From Rozella allomycis CSF55 (lineage: Eukaryota): a stretch of DNA of 20,000 bases. The number at the start of each line of letters is the position of its first letter. Positions within the stretch are counted from its first letter, which is position 1. A program made the position numbers and the translations under genes. The notes under the pieces are model-generated. The model saw only the letters and a list, made by a program, of their open reading frames with translations. It made no database searches and was not told the origin of the DNA. Location: contig KE560384.1 of NCBI GenBank assembly GCA_000442015.1, positions 109,189-129,188 on the forward strand, given 5' to 3'. Positions 2,771-12,702 of this stretch are shown one piece after another.

Positions 2771-5067
2771 ATGCGTTGGACTCTTTTGGAGCCTGTACAT
2801 TTTAAAAAGGAAGAAATAACTGCCAGACATGGTCACTCTTGCATTTTTGCTAGTAAGAAGGGACGTGGAGAAGCGGTTGTTCCAGCAATGTATAGTTTCT
2901 TTGGCGCAGTTGAAAATGCCCTATTTAACGAAGTAGTATTGTATGATATCAGTAAACTAAATCTGATAAAAATATAGATAAAAATAATGCAGATATTATT
3001 TTGGAGATAGCTGAAGATGATAAAGTCGTGTTTCCTGTGTCTTGTTGTGCGATTTGCAAAGATGATAATGAGGTTATATATTTGTTTGGAGGTATTTCGT
3101 CTACAGAGGAACGAGATGAGATTGTGCGTCAGGTATGAAATTGAAGGTTGCATGAATAGTTTGTGCAGTTTGATATTGAAACGAAGAGTTTTAAGAGTGT
3201 TGAATGGACAGGAGAATGCCCGCCACATCTTTTGGGTGCAAAGATGAATTTTGTTAAAGAAGAGAGAAAGATTTATTTGTTTGGAGGATATCGCGATGAT
3301 TTCAAATTTTCGAATGATTTGTATTCTTTTGATTTGGAGACTAATAAATGGGAGCTGGTAGAATGCAATGGAATGAAGCCAAGAGAAAGAGAATCGCATT
3401 CTATGGAGTATTGGGAGTGTTCGAAGCCAATTACCCTTTTAAAGGACAATGAAGAAGAGGAAATTGAGAATGGGAAATTTTTGGTAGTTTTTGGCGGATT
3501 GACTGAAGGCCATCGATTAAACGACGTTCAATTTTATAATCTAAGTAAGAAATAAATAATGAGAAAATAAAGATAATAAAACTTGGTATCAAGCAAGAAC
3601 GCCCACTGCGAATGAAGTTACGGGCAGAAGTCAACATTCTGCATTTATTTACAAGGATAAAATTTACATTTTATTTGGATGGGAATATTCCACAGAAGCT
3701 CAATCGATGCCGTTAAGAGAATTGAATGAAGAGAGAACTGTTGCTGAGAGCAAGAATGTGTATTCAAAACTGAAAACACATTCTAAATTTGCCAAATCTA
3801 TTTTAATGTATGATATATTTTCAAACGAATGGACGAAAAAGGAATTCCATGGTGGCATAGTTCCAACGCCCAGGGTTGGTCATGGGGCCGCCCAATTTGA
3901 AGATAAAATTTATGTCTTTGGTGGAAGAGATGGACCAAAGAGACAACATTGTTTGTCTGATTTTTGGATGTTAGAGTTGGAAGCGACACAAGATGAGAAA
4001 CCAAGACTTGAATACATTGGCAAAAGAAAATGTGCTAGTGAAGCACCAATAGCTGTTTCGAATGATGCTAATGAAAATGAAGTTCCAGAAAAGAAAAAGA
4101 GAAAATCAACAGCGACAGCTCCAAGTACGCCTGCAAAGAAGAGGAGATCTGTGGTACCAACGATTGCTGTTGTTACTCCTCGACAAAAGGACAAGTTGAA
4201 TGTGATTGATTATGATGAAAACATTAGAATTGATTTTAATAAATGCTATGATCCAAATAATTTCCATAAATCATTAGATGAATTGACGATTGGACAACGA
4301 GTAGAAATTGTAAGAATTATTTTGTAAATTTCAAAAGTTTGATGAAGCGTCAGGAAAATTTTATTATGGAAGATTTATTTGTAGAAAAGAAGGCAAAACA
4401 AAGAAAACTTCTGGATTATTTCATTATGAAGGTTGGGCTCATACAATGGATGAATCTATTTCGTTGAATGACATTCCAAGAAGAGTTAGAAAGTTATCAG
4501 AGAGATATCAAGAATGGCTTCAAGAGAATTTGAATAAACAAAAAGAAGGAAATTTTCACGAAATTTTGGATGTCGCAGATTTTTCTGATAAAATTTTTGA
4601 TGAACGGCCATATTTTGGAAATAAAGTAAATTTTAAACTTTCAATTGAAACAATAGGGACCTGAACCTGAAGAAAATTATACTTTGGAATCTTTAGCGAA
4701 ATCTAAACATTACAAGAATCTTTTTCAAACTAAGAAAGAAGAAAGTAGTGAAGGAAGCGTTTTAAGCGACATCCCATCAATGAAAGAAGATGAAGTGAAA
4801 GATATTTCATTATCAACAGTTGAAATCGAAGAAATTGAAGTAAGCGAAGCAAAAGAGAGCATTGAAAGCGCTCAAAGTGAACAAGAGGAAAATATTCAAA
4901 TTATTGAGAGTGTTCAAGAGGAAACTATAAATGATATTTCTATTTCTGAACAACAATCAAACGAATCAAATAAAGAAAATCAAGAAATCGTAGAAATGAA
5001 GAATGAAGATGCTAATGATATTACAAATGATATTACAACAATAACAACTGCAATGGATGTTGAATAA
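2771..5067 (+). CDS. Kelch-repeat protein with basic NLS-like linker, Tudor-knot/chromo-barrel-like domain and acidic tail; join(2771..2951,2978..3132,3160..3544,3573..4309,4338..4625,4657..5067), 718 aa
   Basis: Kelch signatures RHGHS, IYLFGG (x2), RESHS, VVFGG, RSQHS, PRVGHG and IYVFGG. Five GTA-AG introns of 26-31 nt keep the frame. Spliced segment GQRVEIFD...LFHYEGWAHTMDESI. Confidence 0.85.
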
Positions 5068-5068
5068 A

Positions 5069-5821
5069 TTAATCTTTCATTTTATTTTTGTTCATTTTGT
5101 CCATCCATTCATTATACAGAATTGCAAGTTCAGGTGAACCCCCAATTGCTTCCTTTGTCAATTGCAACTCTTCTAATCTTCTATTTATATCTTCAAAATC
5201 TTTCGTTATCTTCTTATGAAATGGTGACTCAATTTCAGTTGTTTCTACAGCCTTTGATTCCACCAGTATCCTCTGACTGTTCTTCAAACAGTGAATAGCC
5301 TCATTGTACAATTGGACTTGCTGAAGAAGACTCCCGATATATTTCCATCCTTGATAACATGTTCTTCTTTCATCTAAATAGCCAGTTATATACATCAATG
5401 CATCTTATGATTAAACTCAATCTATATTTACTCTTGTAATCTTTAATCTTATGAAACGCTTGGAAAAGAAGTAACAAACTACCTGCATCTCTCGTCTTTA
5501 GTGAAATCTATAATCAAACTCAATACACATTACAAGCTCATTCGCAACCAACTTTATATTCTCACACTCTTCAAGTTTCATAAAACACCTCAATCTTAAA
5601 TCCACAATTTCCTTCTTCCCTTTTATATTCTCGCATTCCAAAAGGCATTTCCTATACTCTCCTCTATAATAATACTCATCTGCCCGGTATTTCGCCATCG
5701 GCAGTGTCTTGCAATACTCTTTATCATCAAAAGACGAATCCTTAAACCACTGCTACACATATTTATATATTCTTACATTTTCTGTACGGTAAAAGAATGA
5801 ATACTCTGAATCTTGTGGCAT
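5069..5821 (-). CDS. TPR-like protein resembling C8orf76; complement(join(5069..5403,5432..5507,5534..5752,5777..5821)), 224 aa
   Basis: Three GTA-AG introns (24 or 27, 26, 28 nt) join the fragments. QWF...KYRADEYYYRGEYRKCL...RC resembles the C8orf76 N-terminus as I recall it; not searched. Confidence 0.65.
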
Positions 5822-7328
5822 GGGCGAAAAACTTTACTTGGTTCGTTTCGTACAACGACATGCTGAATTTCGATTAGCTGAATTTGAAGCTCTGTGCAAA
5901 TTATTTGATATAAAATACAAGGCGCACACGGAATACACTGATCTTGTATAGTTATTTTTTGAAAATGATGTAGAGTCCGTTTTGGATTGTTTCTTTCAGA
6001 TCTGAAGATGATATTAGAAAAATATTGTCGAGGTCTTTTTTGATAAAGTATATAGATATGGTTTGAACTAGTAGATGTGTGTTGGAGCATTATGCGTGCA
6101 GCGAACAATCGTTAGATCATTTGGCAGAATTAGTTAAAGATATACCGCAAGATGTTTTCGTAAGATTATTTGGTTCAATCGAGTCAGGAAGTTTATAGAA
6201 ACGATACATTTAAATTTGTTATAGACACTTTTGCTACCTCAATGTCTGGCAAGGAAAAGATTGACACTATAGAAAAGTTTGCTTATCTGCCATTTGACGG
6301 GGACATTGACTTGAAAAATCCAAAGAATACTTTTCACGTGATAATCGATAACAGACACACAATAGAAAAGGAACCAAGAGCGTTCTATTTTGGAAGATGG
6401 ATTGGAGATGGAAATAGAGAGTTTATCGATATCTATAATGTCAAAAAGAGAAAATACATTGGCACTACAACAATGGACGCTGAGCTGTCGCTGATAATGT
6501 CAAATATGGCACTAGTCAAGAAGGGGTCTCTGGTTTACGATCCATTTGTTGGCACTGGTAATTTATAATAATTGATATTGTGGGCAGCTTTCTAGTTACT
6601 TCATCTTGCTTTGGGTCTTATTCATTCGGTTCAGATATTGATGGGCGGCAGATTAGAGGCAAAGATGGAAGTATGTTTAATGATTCACATTTAATAGAAA
6701 AATCTTTGAAATCTAATATAGCACAGTACAAGCTACAAAATAGAATTCTGGGTACAGTTGTTTGTGATATTACTCAACATCCATTTAGGCCCGATGGTTT
6801 CCGTTTCGATGCAATTATCACTGATCGTAAGTATTATTTTTTCTATTCAAAAGCTCCTTACGGTGTTAGAGCAGGCGCGAAAAAGATTATGATGAAGGAG
6901 GGCGGTTTCTTCAAAAATACTGAAGAGTAAAAATGAAATATTTTCTATTAAATAGCGGTAAAAGTTTTTATCCTGCAACCATTCCTTACGAACTGCCAGA
7001 TGTTATTTACGATTTACTAAATTTTTCTTCAGTATATCTTGAAATTGGTGGCAGGCTGGTGTACTGGTTACCAGTAATTGATGATGAAGAGTAAATTTAT
7101 TGCAATGGGTGTAATAGGGAAAATGATTTAAAAGAGCCTCCTAATCATCCATGTTTTGACATGATCTCAAAATGCCCTCAAATATTCGGCGGCTGGCGAA
7201 GGATTCTTGTTACAATGGAGAAAAAGTGCGATCCTGAATCTATAGACTTTAATATCAAAAAAGATCATTTGGTGGAACCTTTTAGAAATCGGTTTTTCAC
7301 GAAAATGAAATTAAACAGCGAAGCATAA
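5820..7328 (+). CDS. TRM11: tRNA m2G10 methyltransferase catalytic subunit; join(5820..5945,5974..6047,6075..6159,6188..6557,6584..6670,6698..6826,6854..6926,6956..7090,7118..7328), 429 aa
   Basis: N-terminus YLVRFVQRHAEFR, RKYIGTTTMDAELSL, DPFVGTGS, GSDID, spliced DAIITDPPYGVR, and GGRLVYWLP. Eight introns of 26-29 nt, one non-canonical. Confidence 0.93.
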
Positions 7329-7340
7329 TATAAATAAATT

Positions 7341-7405
7341 GATTAAATTAAATGATTAAGTTAAGTGATTAAAGTAAATGATTAAATTGAATTATTGAAT
7401 GAAAT
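7341..7405. repeat. Imperfect 13-bp tandem repeat, about 5 units (GATTAAATTAAAT-like)
   Basis: Consecutive units gattaaattaaat, gattaagttaagt, gattaaagtaaat, gattaaattgaat, tattgaatgaaat. Confidence 0.75.
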
Positions 7406-7432
7406 TTATGACTCGCGATAAAAACAATATGT

Positions 7433-8539
7433 TCAAAAGTCTGGCACTGTATTGATGAATTGTGGCGATTTTAATCTAAAATACACCATTGTTAACAAAC
7501 CTAGGAGAATAACACCACCGACAAACGAATAGATAATTTTTGGCATTAAGTTTGACACATCCTCGCGATGAGCCAGTTCTTTCATGTCTAAATATGTTCT
7601 CTTCATAAATTCTGGATAATTTTCGTTGACTTCATACTCATAAATGCTGCTTTTGAGATCGTCAGGAGTTATATCATATAAAAGAGAATTTACATAGTTC
7701 TGGAACGTTGTTGCAAAACTTAATGAGGCGAATAGAGTATTCACAGTTAACTGGTTTTGAAAATAGTAATTTACGTATTCAATTACTGAAGAAAGTACTT
7801 CTTTTTCTATCTTTCCAGCCGATTCTTCAACGGACAATTTAAGCATAAGAACAAATGTACTTTCGACTATATCGCACACTGATGAAATGAAGGGACTTTC
7901 GGGTACTTCTGAATATGCTGGAGGTTTTATTAAAGCATTCTTAAGAATCTTATGCTCGTATACAGCTTTTAAAAGATGAACAAATGGTAATTCTTTAGTG
8001 TTGCGTAAAATATCAAAAACTGAATTGTATTCATAATCTTTCGCGTGTCTTTTCACCATAATTGGTATGAGCTTCGAGTTATCTGTCATCATAGAAGCAA
8101 GCAGCATAATATCATCATTGCTAATTTTTTCTTTTTTGGACAAAGTTCCACTGGGTACTTTATACGACCCGTTATCTTTCAATCCCAATAAATTTAGATG
8201 ATTTCGAGAATTTTCATTAGGTGCAATCGCAAACAAAAAGTCGACAAAAAGATTCTTATTTGCCTCACTCAGCGAACTCTTCAGTATCACTTTCAAAGTC
8301 GAAGCAGACGAAATAAACTTAAATACGTGCTCTTCAATTTCATAATTCTTGGTTAGTTCATTAAATGCTTTATGAAACGCAAAATCAGATAATCTTGAAA
8401 TCAAGTTGTCGTTTAAATATTCGATGTTCAGATTATCTATCCTTGACATAAGATTTACACCGAGTTCATTATATCGTGCTGTATCACATAAATACAACGA
8501 AAAAAACCAAAAGAAAAGTAGTGCACTTGAAAATTTCAT
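7433..8539 (-). CDS. Orphan single-pass type-I membrane protein, 368 aa, apparently intronless
   Basis: Long ORF with signal-peptide-like MKFSSALLFFWFFSLYLC from ATG 8539 and C-terminal TM IIYSFVGGVILLGLLTMVYF plus a short tail. No family recognised. Confidence 0.75.
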   Translation of the reverse strand: MKFSSALLFFWFFSLYLCDTARYNELGVNLMSRIDNLNIEYLNDNLISRLSDFAFHKAFNELTKNYEIEEHVFKFISSASTLKVILKSSLSEANKNLFVDFLFAIAPNENSRNHLNLLGLKDNGSYKVPSGTLSKKEKISNDDIMLLASMMTDNSKLIPIMVKRHAKDYEYNSVFDILRNTKELPFVHLLKAVYEHKILKNALIKPPAYSEVPESPFISSVCDIVESTFVLMLKLSVEESAGKIEKEVLSSVIEYVNYYFQNQLTVNTLFASLSFATTFQNYVNSLLYDITPDDLKSSIYEYEVNENYPEFMKRTYLDMKELAHREDVSNLMPKIIYSFVGGVILLGLLTMVYFRLKSPQFINTVPDF

Positions 8540-8832
8540 CAGTGGCTCCAATGGTGGCTGTGTATAGCTATATTTAAAATGTCGCGTTTTTGATGTATTA
8601 ATAGTATTCTTCATAACAAACTTATTAAAGTATTTTCTGCAATTACCTTGGTATATTTCACAGCCTTTATTTGCACCTTCTGAATTGAGACTTGCCTTGG
8701 CATTTCCTGCTTCATTGTACCAAATATAAGTACGAATATTGAAATATTTCAAATATTTTCTTCCTTTCCTTTACATTTTCATTTGTTGCAAGTTTCTTTC
8801 CTGTGTTTTTTTACGAAAAATCAAATTTTGTG

Positions 8833-9503
8833 ATGTCAAGAAATACAGCATTAAAAAGGCTCATGACAGAGTACAAAGGTAAATAGCTTCAAAATTCATA
8901 TATTTTAAAGAACTTACATTACACGCTCCTGATGGAATAACTGCCGGTAATAAGCATATCATCTGGTGATAGGGCCCGTTTCTGAAAATAACTTTTTTGT
9001 GTGGGAAGCTTTAATAGCGTACCTTTTGATTGAAATATAAAGTAGAGGACCTGAAGATACACCATTCGAAGGGGGTGTTTTTGTTGCAAAACTTACATTT
9101 CCAACTGATTACCCGTTATCTCCTCCAGAAATGAGATTTACGAGTGAAATATTCCACCCCAATATCTATTCGGATGGAAGAGTGTGCATTAGTATCCTGC
9201 ACGCACCAGGGGATGATCCTAATCAATATGAAAGTAGTTGTGAAAGGTGGAGGTAAAAAAAATAGTGCGATTTATTACTAGTCCTGTACAATGTGTTGAG
9301 AAAATACTTCTTTCTGTTGTATCGATGCTCGCAGGTAAGTAATGAATTATATTTGTGATAGAACCAAACGTAGAGAGTGGAGCGAACATAGATGCTTGCG
9401 TAATAATTTATTGTCGTCTTTAATGAAGAAAATTTATAGAAACGATATAAATGAATATAATAGAATAGTTAGGGAATGTGTGAAGAAAAGTCTCGGCTTA
9501 TAG
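8833..9503 (+). CDS. UBC7: E2 ubiquitin-conjugating enzyme Ubc7/UBE2G2; join(8833..8878,8911..8946,8973..9018,9046..9252,9282..9334,9362..9399,9429..9503), 166 aa
   Basis: [32 protein letters not shown] and [33 protein letters not shown] (catalytic Cys plus acidic loop). Six introns. Entirely absent from the ORF track. Confidence 0.95.
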
Positions 9504-9548
9504 TCAATTCAAAATTGCATCATAAAGAATATGTAAATTTTAATTTTA

Positions 9549-12514
9549 TTATTTCTGTACTTCGTAGCCAGCATAGCCATGGGGATTTGCTTCTCTTATG
9601 ATACGAAGAAAAACATCTTCCAATGTTGAATGAGAAATACCCCACGCTTTAATTAGTCCTAATCAATACTATCAATCTTCTTATACCGTCTGGATTGGTT
9701 TCAAGATAATCTACAAATTTGGGAATATATGGAACTTCATTCGGTGAGATGTTGTAAATTAATGATCCTGCTGTTTCATCTTCTAATTTGGCTTCTCTCA
9801 TCCTTGCAGATACCTGATCTTTAACTTTATTTGAGTTTTTAGGGGAAATAACTAGAGAAATTCGGTACCCTGAACCAAACCTTGCCTTGAGATTTATAGA
9901 TGACCCTAAAGCCCGGATACGACCATGAGCCATGATCGCAATTTTATCACCCAAAACATCGGCTTCTTCCATTGAATGTGTAGTTAAAATTACAGCCCTG
10001 TCTTTTTTAAACTCTTCAATGAATGTCCAAACATGTCGTCTATTTAATGGATCCATTCCAGTTGTGGGTTCATCCTACAGAATTGTTAATTATCATTAAA
10101 TACCATGTAAACAACGTGAGGATCACCTAGCGTACTTAATATCAAAGATAATCGTCGTTTCATTCCTCCGCTGAAAGTTTTAACATGAGCGTTCACAACC
10201 TATTAAAATATTTACTACAAAAATACTTTATCCAGTTTGACCATGCTTATCCTTTCTTTCATCGTTTTTCTAACTTTGCTCAAAGAAAGGTTCTTTATTC
10301 CCGCGTAAAGCTCAACATGTTCCCAGGGTGTTAAATCTTCAAACAAAATATCAAACTTGGTTATCAAATTTGTTTGAATGATTACTTGAGGACAAACTCC
10401 CATAATTTCACGTATTTTATGCATTTCAAATCTAACACTAAAGCCAAAAATAAATGCATCCCCGTCTGTTAGTCGAACCGCCCCTGCAAGAATGTTTTGG
10501 AGAGTGCTCTCTTAATATCAATCAGTAAGATTTACTTTGCCAGCTCCATTTTGTCCCAAAAGAGCCAATAATTTCCCATTTTCAAGAGTTAAACAAACAT
10601 GATTCACAGCTAGTTTGGATTTAACCGATGAAAATATTCCAGATGAATAAACTTTCTTCAAATTTGTTATTCTTATTGCAAATAGCTTTCTCAAGTCAAA
10701 TGCCTCGTCTCGTTCTTTTTCAACGTCAACATCCTCGTTGTATGGCTATATTTTGGCTTTAACGATTATACTATTTTTATTTTTTGACTATTTTTTAATT
10801 GTCTCATTGCTCTGGAATGGGTGAATGCATGAAATCCATAATAAGCTGGGTTCAAGAAAAACAGCGGACCTTTTCTATTTCCGATCGCATCAGGGAAAAC
10901 TCTATCAAAATATCTATCAAAATTCTGTCATGAAATTACAATGCGAGAATAAAATAAATGCCTGACAATACAAATAGACATACAAGTGACTCTATTGTTG
11001 GAGGAATGTATGGTGAGTCTCCATAATTCGGGATATAAACTTCAGGCAAAGGAATAAAAAGATCTTTCATCCTGAATCCAGGTCCAGCTACTATCATTTC
11101 ACTAATTGAGTATTTGAACAATCTATTACGTCACTGGATCTAACGGTCCCTGAGCCAATTGTTTTATATCTGTAGTTATTTTTCCAAAGTGAAAAAATGG
11201 AATGGCGTAGAAAAGGTACTTAATGATACTTGGAGTTATTTTTGACCACCATAGGTATGCCAAGTATGTTTCAGAGAATATTATGGACGTGAAAATCAAC
11301 CCCACAATGAAAACTCCAATCCCACAAAGCAAAGCTGTTTTAATTTTTAAGCAGAAAGTAGTTATCAAATAGCCCAAATTTATCATGGCTAAATTGAATG
11401 CAAAGAGTGTAACAAAAATAACCTATCTTATACGCAGAAATATAGTACTATAAAATCTGTATTTCTGATTAAATCAAATTTAAAAATGTATCCCAATGCA
11501 ATAGTGACTAGTCCGTTAATCGCCGCCAAGGTTGAATGGAAAAGCAGCCAACTCAGCCAGTAAGAAATGGACTATATCTATTATAACGTAAACCGCTACC
11601 TTCAGTCCCATCATGTCCATACTAACTCTTGTCTTTCTATCTTTATCAAGCATGACATGGTTTATCAAAGCCATAAAAATAAACATAGATGCACTGTATG
11701 TAAACGATAGGATAAATCTGGAAACAACTTGATCGGAATAACCCAAAGAGGGAATAACCGGCCAATCACGAACGGTCACATCGATATTCAATGGGTTGGA
11801 ATTACCATCTCCACTAGTTAGGACAGTAATGATTGCCTCATCTATTCCTCTGATCAAGGAGTGAAGAGATGATCCAAAAGAATCAATTGCATGTCCATCC
11901 GAACTCTTTTGGCGGACTAGTGTAGAGTTATACCAAATTAAATATTGAAAATTGGAACTATCTTGACTAAACGTAATTCCGAATTGGGTAATGTTCGGAT
12001 TCACTAGAACGTATTGGTAAAGAAATTGTTCATTTGGTACAGCCACAGCNNNNNNNNNNNNNNNNNNNNNNNNNNNNNNNNTCTATGAAAATTATGTATT
12101 TAATCTACTTGTCAATGGCGATGAATACAGCGATGTCGGGTTACCGCCAATACTCTGAAGTCTTGCGTTGTTCTTGGTTATGAAGGTTTGTATTATGTTG
12201 TCGTTTATTGAAGATTTTGGTGTGTACATTATGTCAATGCAGTTCCCCTTTTTCATAATCATTTAGGTTTTTACTGGACAGCTAATCAATGGGCTCAAAG
12301 AGCTCGAAGGCGGATTGTAATTGTATGTTTTAATCGCGTTACTTTCAATTGATTGTAATGACCAAAGAATGATGTATATTAGTGTGGGAGCTATAACCAA
12401 TTGTACAATAGTGGCTTTCCAATGCCTCATCTAATATAAATTTGAATAAATATGTACAGCCAATATTATATTCTTTTTGAATAATACATATGTTTGCAAA
12501 AAATAGAGAAACAT
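9549..12514 (-). CDS. Half-size ABCA transporter (one TMD, one NBD), ~870 aa. Introns: 9659-9686, 10075-10103, 10200-10226, 10356-10385, 10509-10535, 10746-10771, 10914-10939, 11102-11129, 11423-11448, 11572-11599, 12083-12108, 12248-12274, 12431-12457
   Basis: N-terminus QTYVLFKKNIILA|MRHWK, MMGLK|SISYWLSW, GQNGAGK|ST, CPQ|FD, FSGGMKRRLS, YM|DEPTTGMDP, LTTHSMEEAD and STLEDVFL. Spans a 32-N gap. Confidence 0.9.
12050..12081. other. Assembly gap (32 N) inside the ABCA gene
   Basis: Run of N. Confidence 0.99.
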
Positions 12515-12643: not shown

Positions 12644-12702
12644 AATGAAGATTTTCGACTTCAAAAATAAATNAATGAAGATTTTCGACATCAAAAATAA
12701 AT
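12644..12702. other. 29-bp duplication around a single N (assembly artefact)
   Basis: 12644-12672 and 12674-12702 are identical except T12660/A12690. Confidence 0.9.

Follow-up and report, generated by a model that had tools for sequence, protein, structure and literature searches.

Whether an intron can still be excised when the base before its terminal G is not A is a question raised by the fourth intron of the TRM11 gene in Rozella allomycis, a parasite and early-diverging fungus. The window, by which we mean the whole 20,000-nt stretch of Rozella DNA analyzed here, is AT-rich (32% to 40% GC) and carries many very short introns that begin with GTA and end with AG. The original prediction, made from the letters of the window, placed a 26-nt intron with the termini GT and GG inside the SAM-binding motif of the encoded methyltransferase.

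TRM11 gene structure

With intron 4 taken as 6558–6583, TRM11 consists of eight exons that form an open coding sequence of 438 codons, with a TAA stop at 7326–7328 (Table 1). The product is homologous to fungal Trm11 over its full length and scores 502 bits against a profile of orthologs. When the translation of exon 4 was used to search a protein database, 113 matches were obtained. The R. allomycis CSF55 protein RKP19237.1 (P0003) was 100% identical over this exon, and the next matches after Rozella were fungal Trm11 proteins, with 45% to 56% identity over exon 4.

Domain assignments were made with Pfam. The RMKL-like methyltransferase domain (PF01170) matched the public Rozella model EPZ36996.1 (P0116) with 32.4 bits against a cut-off of 22.3. 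The N-terminal THUMP-like domain (PF25904) is a precomputed label of RKP19237.1, and the Pfam search performed here gave no match to PF25904. Motif IV (DPPYG) is intact and is read as ITDPPYGVRAG across the junction of exons 5 and 6. Among the archaeal Trm11 structures (5E71/5E72 and 6ZXV/6ZXW), 5E71 aligns to both motif I and motif IV of the Rozella protein. Apart from intron 4, the gene has six canonical introns, exons free of stop codons, and motif IV in place.

Table 1. Positions in the window of TRM11, its introns and the sequence elements at the proposed intron 4.
Feature	Position	Strand	Remarks
TRM11 / TRMT11 (tRNA guanine-10 N2-methyltransferase)	5820..7328	+	Homology, CDS translation, Pfam PF01170
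Intron 1	5946..5973	+	28 nt, GT-AG
Intron 2	6048..6074	+	27 nt, GT-AG
Intron 3	6160..6187	+	28 nt, GT-AG; an AG at 24 nt is passed over, as judged by reading frame
Exon 4	6188..6557	+	Ends ...DPFVGT plus first base of a Gly codon (phase 1)
Proposed intron 4	6558..6583	+	26 nt, GTAATT...TTGTGG, GT-GG; splicing predicted, DNA confirmed
Two in-frame TAA	6566..6571	+	Met if the intron is retained (reading frame)
TTGAT	6572..6576	+	Possible branch-site-like motif; weakly suggested by sequence
GG where other introns carry AG	6582..6583	+	6582 is the presumed A-to-G change
Exon 5	6584..6826	+	Opens GC AGC TTT CTA (completes G, then S F L); ends ...DAIITD plus C of the next Pro codon
Competing canonical acceptor CAG	6586..6587	+	30-nt intron; frameshift, TAG at 6593-95, 220 aa
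Acceptor of both public gene models	6594..6595	+	38-nt intron, in frame, GSFL deleted
Intron 5	6827..6853	+	27 nt, GT-AG
Intron 6	6927..6955	+	29 nt, GT-AG
Intron 7	7091..7117	+	27 nt, GT-AG

Introns of the window

To set a local standard, 42 other introns were picked by hand from the window. Each begins with GTA, ends with AG, connects open frames of recognisable genes and, if left in, would disrupt the reading frame. Note that the set was drawn up on these open-frame criteria and not from RNA. The introns lie on both strands and have lengths of 26 nt (6 introns), 27 nt (15), 28 nt (10), 29 nt (8), 30 nt (1) and 31 nt (2), with a mode of 27 nt; none is 38 nt. Due to this narrow class, a 26-nt intron 4 fits well and one of 38 nt does not fit at all. 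The donor starts with GTA in 42/42 introns and the acceptor is AG in 42/42, most often TAG (32) and less often AAG (7), CAG (2) or GAG (1).

In all 42 introns the acceptor used is the first AG that lies at least 26 nt from the donor. AG dinucleotides at 22 to 25 nt are skipped, and the reading frame decides this in three cases: the intron with its donor at 6160 and two on the minus strand, 10509–10535 and 11423–11448. Applied to intron 4, the rule predicts use of the frameshifting AG at 6586–87. No clear position-specific signal for a branch site was found across the 42 introns, and due to this the distance from branch to acceptor does not discriminate between a 26-nt and a 30-nt intron 4. Literature searches, with supplements outside their scope, found no paper on the intron length class of Rozella or on its non-canonical splicing; James et al. 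(2013) may describe intron lengths.

Candidate junctions for intron 4

Exon 4 closes with ...GGC ACT G at 6557, and GTAATT comes directly after it. Read-through would add GNL and then meet stops. The in-frame stop after the donor had been said to make an intron necessary, and the consecutive TAA codons at 6566–6571 bear this out; an intron at the 6558 donor is accordingly well placed as a requirement of the reading frame, and we regard the need for it as supported. Two other ways around these codons were considered and rejected. A reassigned stop code of the ciliate type was set aside since Rozella is fungal and the exons hold no in-frame TAA or TAG, and an excised DNA element like those of Paramecium was dismissed because no TA...TA pair at a spacing of 26 nt gives the same product. 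Nothing of note was seen on the opposite strand at 6558–6583.

Removal of 6558–6583 joins G to GC AGC TTT CTA and yields DPFVGTGSFLV, in agreement with the expectation that motif I would be regained only through loss of these 26 nt. Downstream of the GG, the sequence offers a frameshifting CAG 4 nt on and an in-frame TAG 12 nt on. The nearest AG was expected to shift the frame into a TAG, and it does so at 6593–95, with a product of 220 amino acids. Likewise, the 38-nt intron had been described as longer than any other and as dropping GSFL; it lies beyond the 26 to 31 nt of 42/42 other introns of the window, and its product lacks those four residues. The A at 6575, within TTGAT, precedes the end at GG by 8 nt, the AG at 6587 by 12 nt and the AG at 6595 by 20 nt.

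The CAG is the basis of an alternative in which the acceptor of intron 4 is dead or crippled. Splicing would then move to 6586–87, giving a 30-nt intron and a frameshift, and TRM11, in this reduced parasite, would have become a pseudogene or hypomorph only very recently. The outcome would be either the 220-residue protein, which ends within motif I and has almost none of the methyltransferase domain, or degradation of the transcript. Local practice speaks for this reading, in that AG is invariant and the first AG at 26 nt or more is chosen in 42/42 other introns, and lengths of 30 to 31 nt do exist in the window (one intron of 30 nt and two of 31 nt). TRM11 is also not essential in yeast, and relatives of Rozella have lost many genes. 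Decay fits poorly, however, with the state of the rest of the gene, which keeps its 438 codons and its six canonical introns, and with the 12 nt after the GG, which still encode exactly GSFL and remain good coding sequence. The acceptor A alone would moreover be a small target among all possible disabling changes. Taking these points together with the DNA evidence given below, we consider decay of the gene the main alternative, serious but rather unlikely.

Protein conservation and isoform scoring

Conservation of motif I was assessed in 114 database proteins. In 111 of them DPFxG is followed by a segment of the form G[TS][GA][SG] and then a hydrophobic residue; the other three are the two Rozella models and a fragment without the region. 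Serine follows GTG in 110 of the 111 proteins that bear the motif, and asparagine in none. The complete 11-residue string DPFVGTGSFLV is present in nine homologs. A PDB search with the single sequence gave no match; the archaeal Trm11 was obtained with a profile search, in which the motif I segment aligns to DPFMGAGGIL of 5E71. The alignment to Trm11 orthologs that the original prediction proposed as a check therefore favors the junction 6557/6584, with GSFL or close variants kept in 111/114 proteins.

Both public Rozella models, EPZ36996.1 and RKP19237.1, use a 38-nt GT-AG intron, read DPFVGTVTSS and are without GSFL, so that, relative to the Trm11 family, they lack four motif I residues owing to the intron call. 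The first equals the translation of the window minus these four residues, and the second carries three further substitutions. As judged from the translations, motif I (DPFxGTGS) would be complete in TRM11 only with 6558–6583 removed, and it is absent from both models.

Isoforms were scored against a profile built from 66 of 112 homologs. The 26-nt GT-GG form received 502.4 bits, a 26-nt TT-AG form 498.5, a 29-nt TA-AG form 491.5, the annotated 38-nt GT-AG form 479.7 and the 30-nt GT-AG form, cut to 220 residues, 268.9. Because of the motif conservation, these scores and the alignment to 5E71, 6557/6584 is judged to be the ancestral exon junction.

These data bear on the possibility that the annotated models are right, the intron being 6558–6595 and the protein working without GSFL. 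Such an intron has canonical dinucleotides and an in-frame product, and it was chosen in both public annotations; this choice is not evidence, because gene predictors allow canonical sites only. To use this acceptor, the splicing machinery would have to skip the AG at 30 nt and cut at a length outside the range of 42/42 introns. The protein would lose four residues of the SAM-binding motif that are kept in 111/114 proteins and aligned to 5E71, its profile score falls 22.7 bits below that of the GT-GG form, and PF01170 matches only its residues 250–306 and not the motif I region. We find this model improbable.

The second and third scores belong to another alternative, in which the AG at 6586–87 is paired with a donor other than GT, as TT-AG (6562–6587, 26 nt, giving GTGNFL) or TA-AG (6559–6587, 29 nt, giving GTG-FL). 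Both are in frame, have local intron lengths and come near the best score. They would nevertheless set aside a perfect GTAATT donor right at the conserved junction in a window where 42/42 other introns have a GTA donor, and the TT-AG form would put asparagine at the serine position, as 0/111 motif-bearing homologs do. A non-GT donor is for these reasons very improbable.

Metagenomes were scanned for relatives that might carry the same intron position. No close relative of Rozella came up with exon 4 as the query, and a scan with an alignment of 24 proteins found 80 loci at 29% to 46% identity, none close to Rozella. Motif I is uninterrupted in 79 of these 80 distant TRM11 loci, and one locus gave no match. 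Being uninterrupted, the distant loci give neither an example of an intron at this position nor its age.

DNA support for the GG terminus

A single A-to-G error at 6582 would account for everything, and an assembly error, with A as the true base, had been named as a possible refutation. Logan contigs of three DNA runs (X1, X2 and X5) were compared with the window from 3000 to 11000. Record 2 of X1 covers 6420–6914 at a depth of 264 with 0 differences from the window, and record 11 of X2 covers 5975–6901 at a depth of 536 with 7 differences, all at 6025–6235. Both contigs have the letters of the window throughout 6558–6595. They are not merely the source of the window, because both differ from it at other nearby sites. 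The gene model of the second assembly (RKP19237.1) likewise avoids a 26-nt intron, which is indirect evidence that this assembly is also without AG at 6582–6583. With G read in contigs from two other studies (X1 and X2), an assembly or sequencing error is excluded for practical purposes; as an explanation it is largely refuted, and we hold it to be extremely improbable.

Between 5820 and 7240, X1 and the window differ at six positions of the coding sequence, of which five are synonymous and one (K88N) is non-synonymous. At most one non-synonymous change among six has a probability of about 0.005, by a hand calculation that assumes about three quarters of random changes to be non-synonymous. 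The 5:1 bias is suggestive of purifying selection on the versions compared, all of which have GG, and the sharing of GG by the window, X1 and X2 in this setting argues against decay. The argument is weakened by the 819 nt around intron 4 (6236–7054), which are free of differences among the window, X1 and X2, so that the change to GG could postdate the synonymous differences elsewhere.

Two further observations were made on these contigs. X1 and X2 differ from the window at at least 8 positions in 5864–6235 and then at none over the 819 nt; this pattern could stem from haplotypes that recently lost heterozygosity, or from a sweep, round the methyltransferase exons of TRM11. X1 also has one extra T at 5951, in intron 1 of TRM11, which makes that intron 29 nt rather than 28 nt and leaves it within the class of 26 to 31 nt.

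Proposed processing of intron 4

Our best explanation, held with about even confidence, is that intron 4 of TRM11 is a former GT-AG mini-intron which has become GT-GG and which would, in some transcripts at least, still be removed at the old junction. It starts from the DNA sequence itself, from the protein-level need to remove exactly 6558–6583 and from a length of 26 nt that lies within the local class. Under this proposal, intron 4 would be an ordinary U2-type mini-intron of the 26 to 31 nt class, whose acceptor was changed from TAG to TGG by A to G at 6582. Functional mRNA would still be made from the junction 6557/6584, with at least a useful share of transcripts encoding a complete Trm11 with DPFVGTGSFLV. 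Ligation at GG would presumably depend on the retained terminal G and on a site that lies as close as usual to the donor and branch region.

In favor of the proposal, the donor GTAATT is a normal U2-type donor like the local ones that start with GTA, and the absence of GSFL from both independent public models is what one would predict if a canonical 26-nt intron were available in neither assembly. Against it stand the invariance of AG in 42/42 other introns and the first-AG rule, which gives the CAG at 6586–87 and a frameshift. The A at position −2 of an acceptor is important for exon ligation, and a change of A to G there usually cripples the site.

A stronger form of the idea, which we offer as a speculation and rather doubt, is that 3' splice sites of the 26 to 31 nt introns in Rozella are set in a ruler-like mode, mainly by a fixed distance from the donor and branch region rather than by AG. 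GG at the minimal distance of 26 nt would then be preferred to a good CAG 4 nt on.

Comparison with known introns

U12-type introns have the donor consensus RTATCCTT and the branch site consensus TCCTTAAC. Assignment of intron 4 to this type was rejected, since its donor is GTAATTTA and not RTATCCTT and no branch site like TCCTTAAC occurs in 6558–6583. It does have the same terminal dinucleotides as U12-type GT-GG introns, eight of which, including those of ARAF and SLC12A7, have been tabulated from human and mouse (Sheth et al. 2006, PMC1557818).

Other GT-GG introns have been reported. An intron of human BANP has the termini GT-GG, which most vertebrates share, while fishes have GT-AG (PMC4176328), and of about 92,000 manually curated introns in the basidiomycete Ganoderma lingzhi, 38 are GT-GG (PMC11590231). 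A non-AG acceptor is not new in kind, and intron 4 of TRM11 would join a rare but documented class. The BANP and Ganoderma introns resemble it in having a normal GT donor, a GG at a junction fixed by protein conservation, an old junction that is kept and a terminus most simply reached from AG by one A-to-G change. Those cases are based on RNA, whereas intron 4 is known from DNA and protein conservation. It differs from them further in having only 26 nt, the local minimum, and a competing canonical CAG 4 nt downstream.

Ultra-short introns are known from Paramecium (about 25 nt) and also from Nyctotherus, dicyemids and myxozoans. The Rozella class is similar in being narrow, at 26 to 31 nt, and in having a choice of splice site that is seemingly tied to distance. 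Unlike those organisms, Rozella belongs to an early-diverging fungal lineage.

Implications

A real GT-GG splice would mean that EPZ36996.1 and RKP19237.1 wrongly omit four residues of a SAM-binding motif, and that gene models restricted to canonical sites will miss such cases across the Rozella genome. On the protein alignments, an annotation error in these two models is likely. The locus is also a clean natural experiment on acceptor choice among introns of 26 to 31 nt, with GG at the expected distance, CAG at +4 nt and TAG at +12 nt; if the ruler-like reading were true, Rozella would offer a natural setting in which to test how ultra-short introns select their acceptor. Without such a splice, the finding would instead be a tRNA-modification gene that has only just begun to decay, in a relative of the gene-poor Microsporidia. 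Note that a single locus is concerned, with an exception of a known kind, and that the case has modest weight either way.

Other observations in the window

The neighbors of TRM11 encode a DEAD-box helicase, a Kelch protein, an E2 ubiquitin-conjugating enzyme, an ERCC4 nuclease and an NF-X1 zinc-finger protein. A search of the window against Rfam matched no family. The longest uninterrupted open reading frame, at 7436–8770 on the minus strand, encodes 445 amino acids and has no Pfam match. Within it, both alleles are present at 7930–7990 in X1 and X2, with about one third of the depth on the other letter, and a dense cluster of at least 13 differences is found at 8129–8249 in X1 only. From these two regions the sample appears to be heterozygous or mixed.

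X5 gave a 7-kb contig with 126 differences from the window. This contig joins opposite strands at 3519/3702, and the join is most likely a chimera of this low-depth run rather than a feature of the genome. A screen of sequencing runs listed no RNA run that contains TRM11. From the RNA run X13, one contig could be placed, which is unrelated and partial (4372–4604) and lies outside TRM11; it has no bearing on expression or splicing of the gene. The window contains a run of 32 N at 12050–12081 and single N bases at 12673, 15234 and 18627, in or near the ABC-transporter, ERCC4 and NF-X1 genes.
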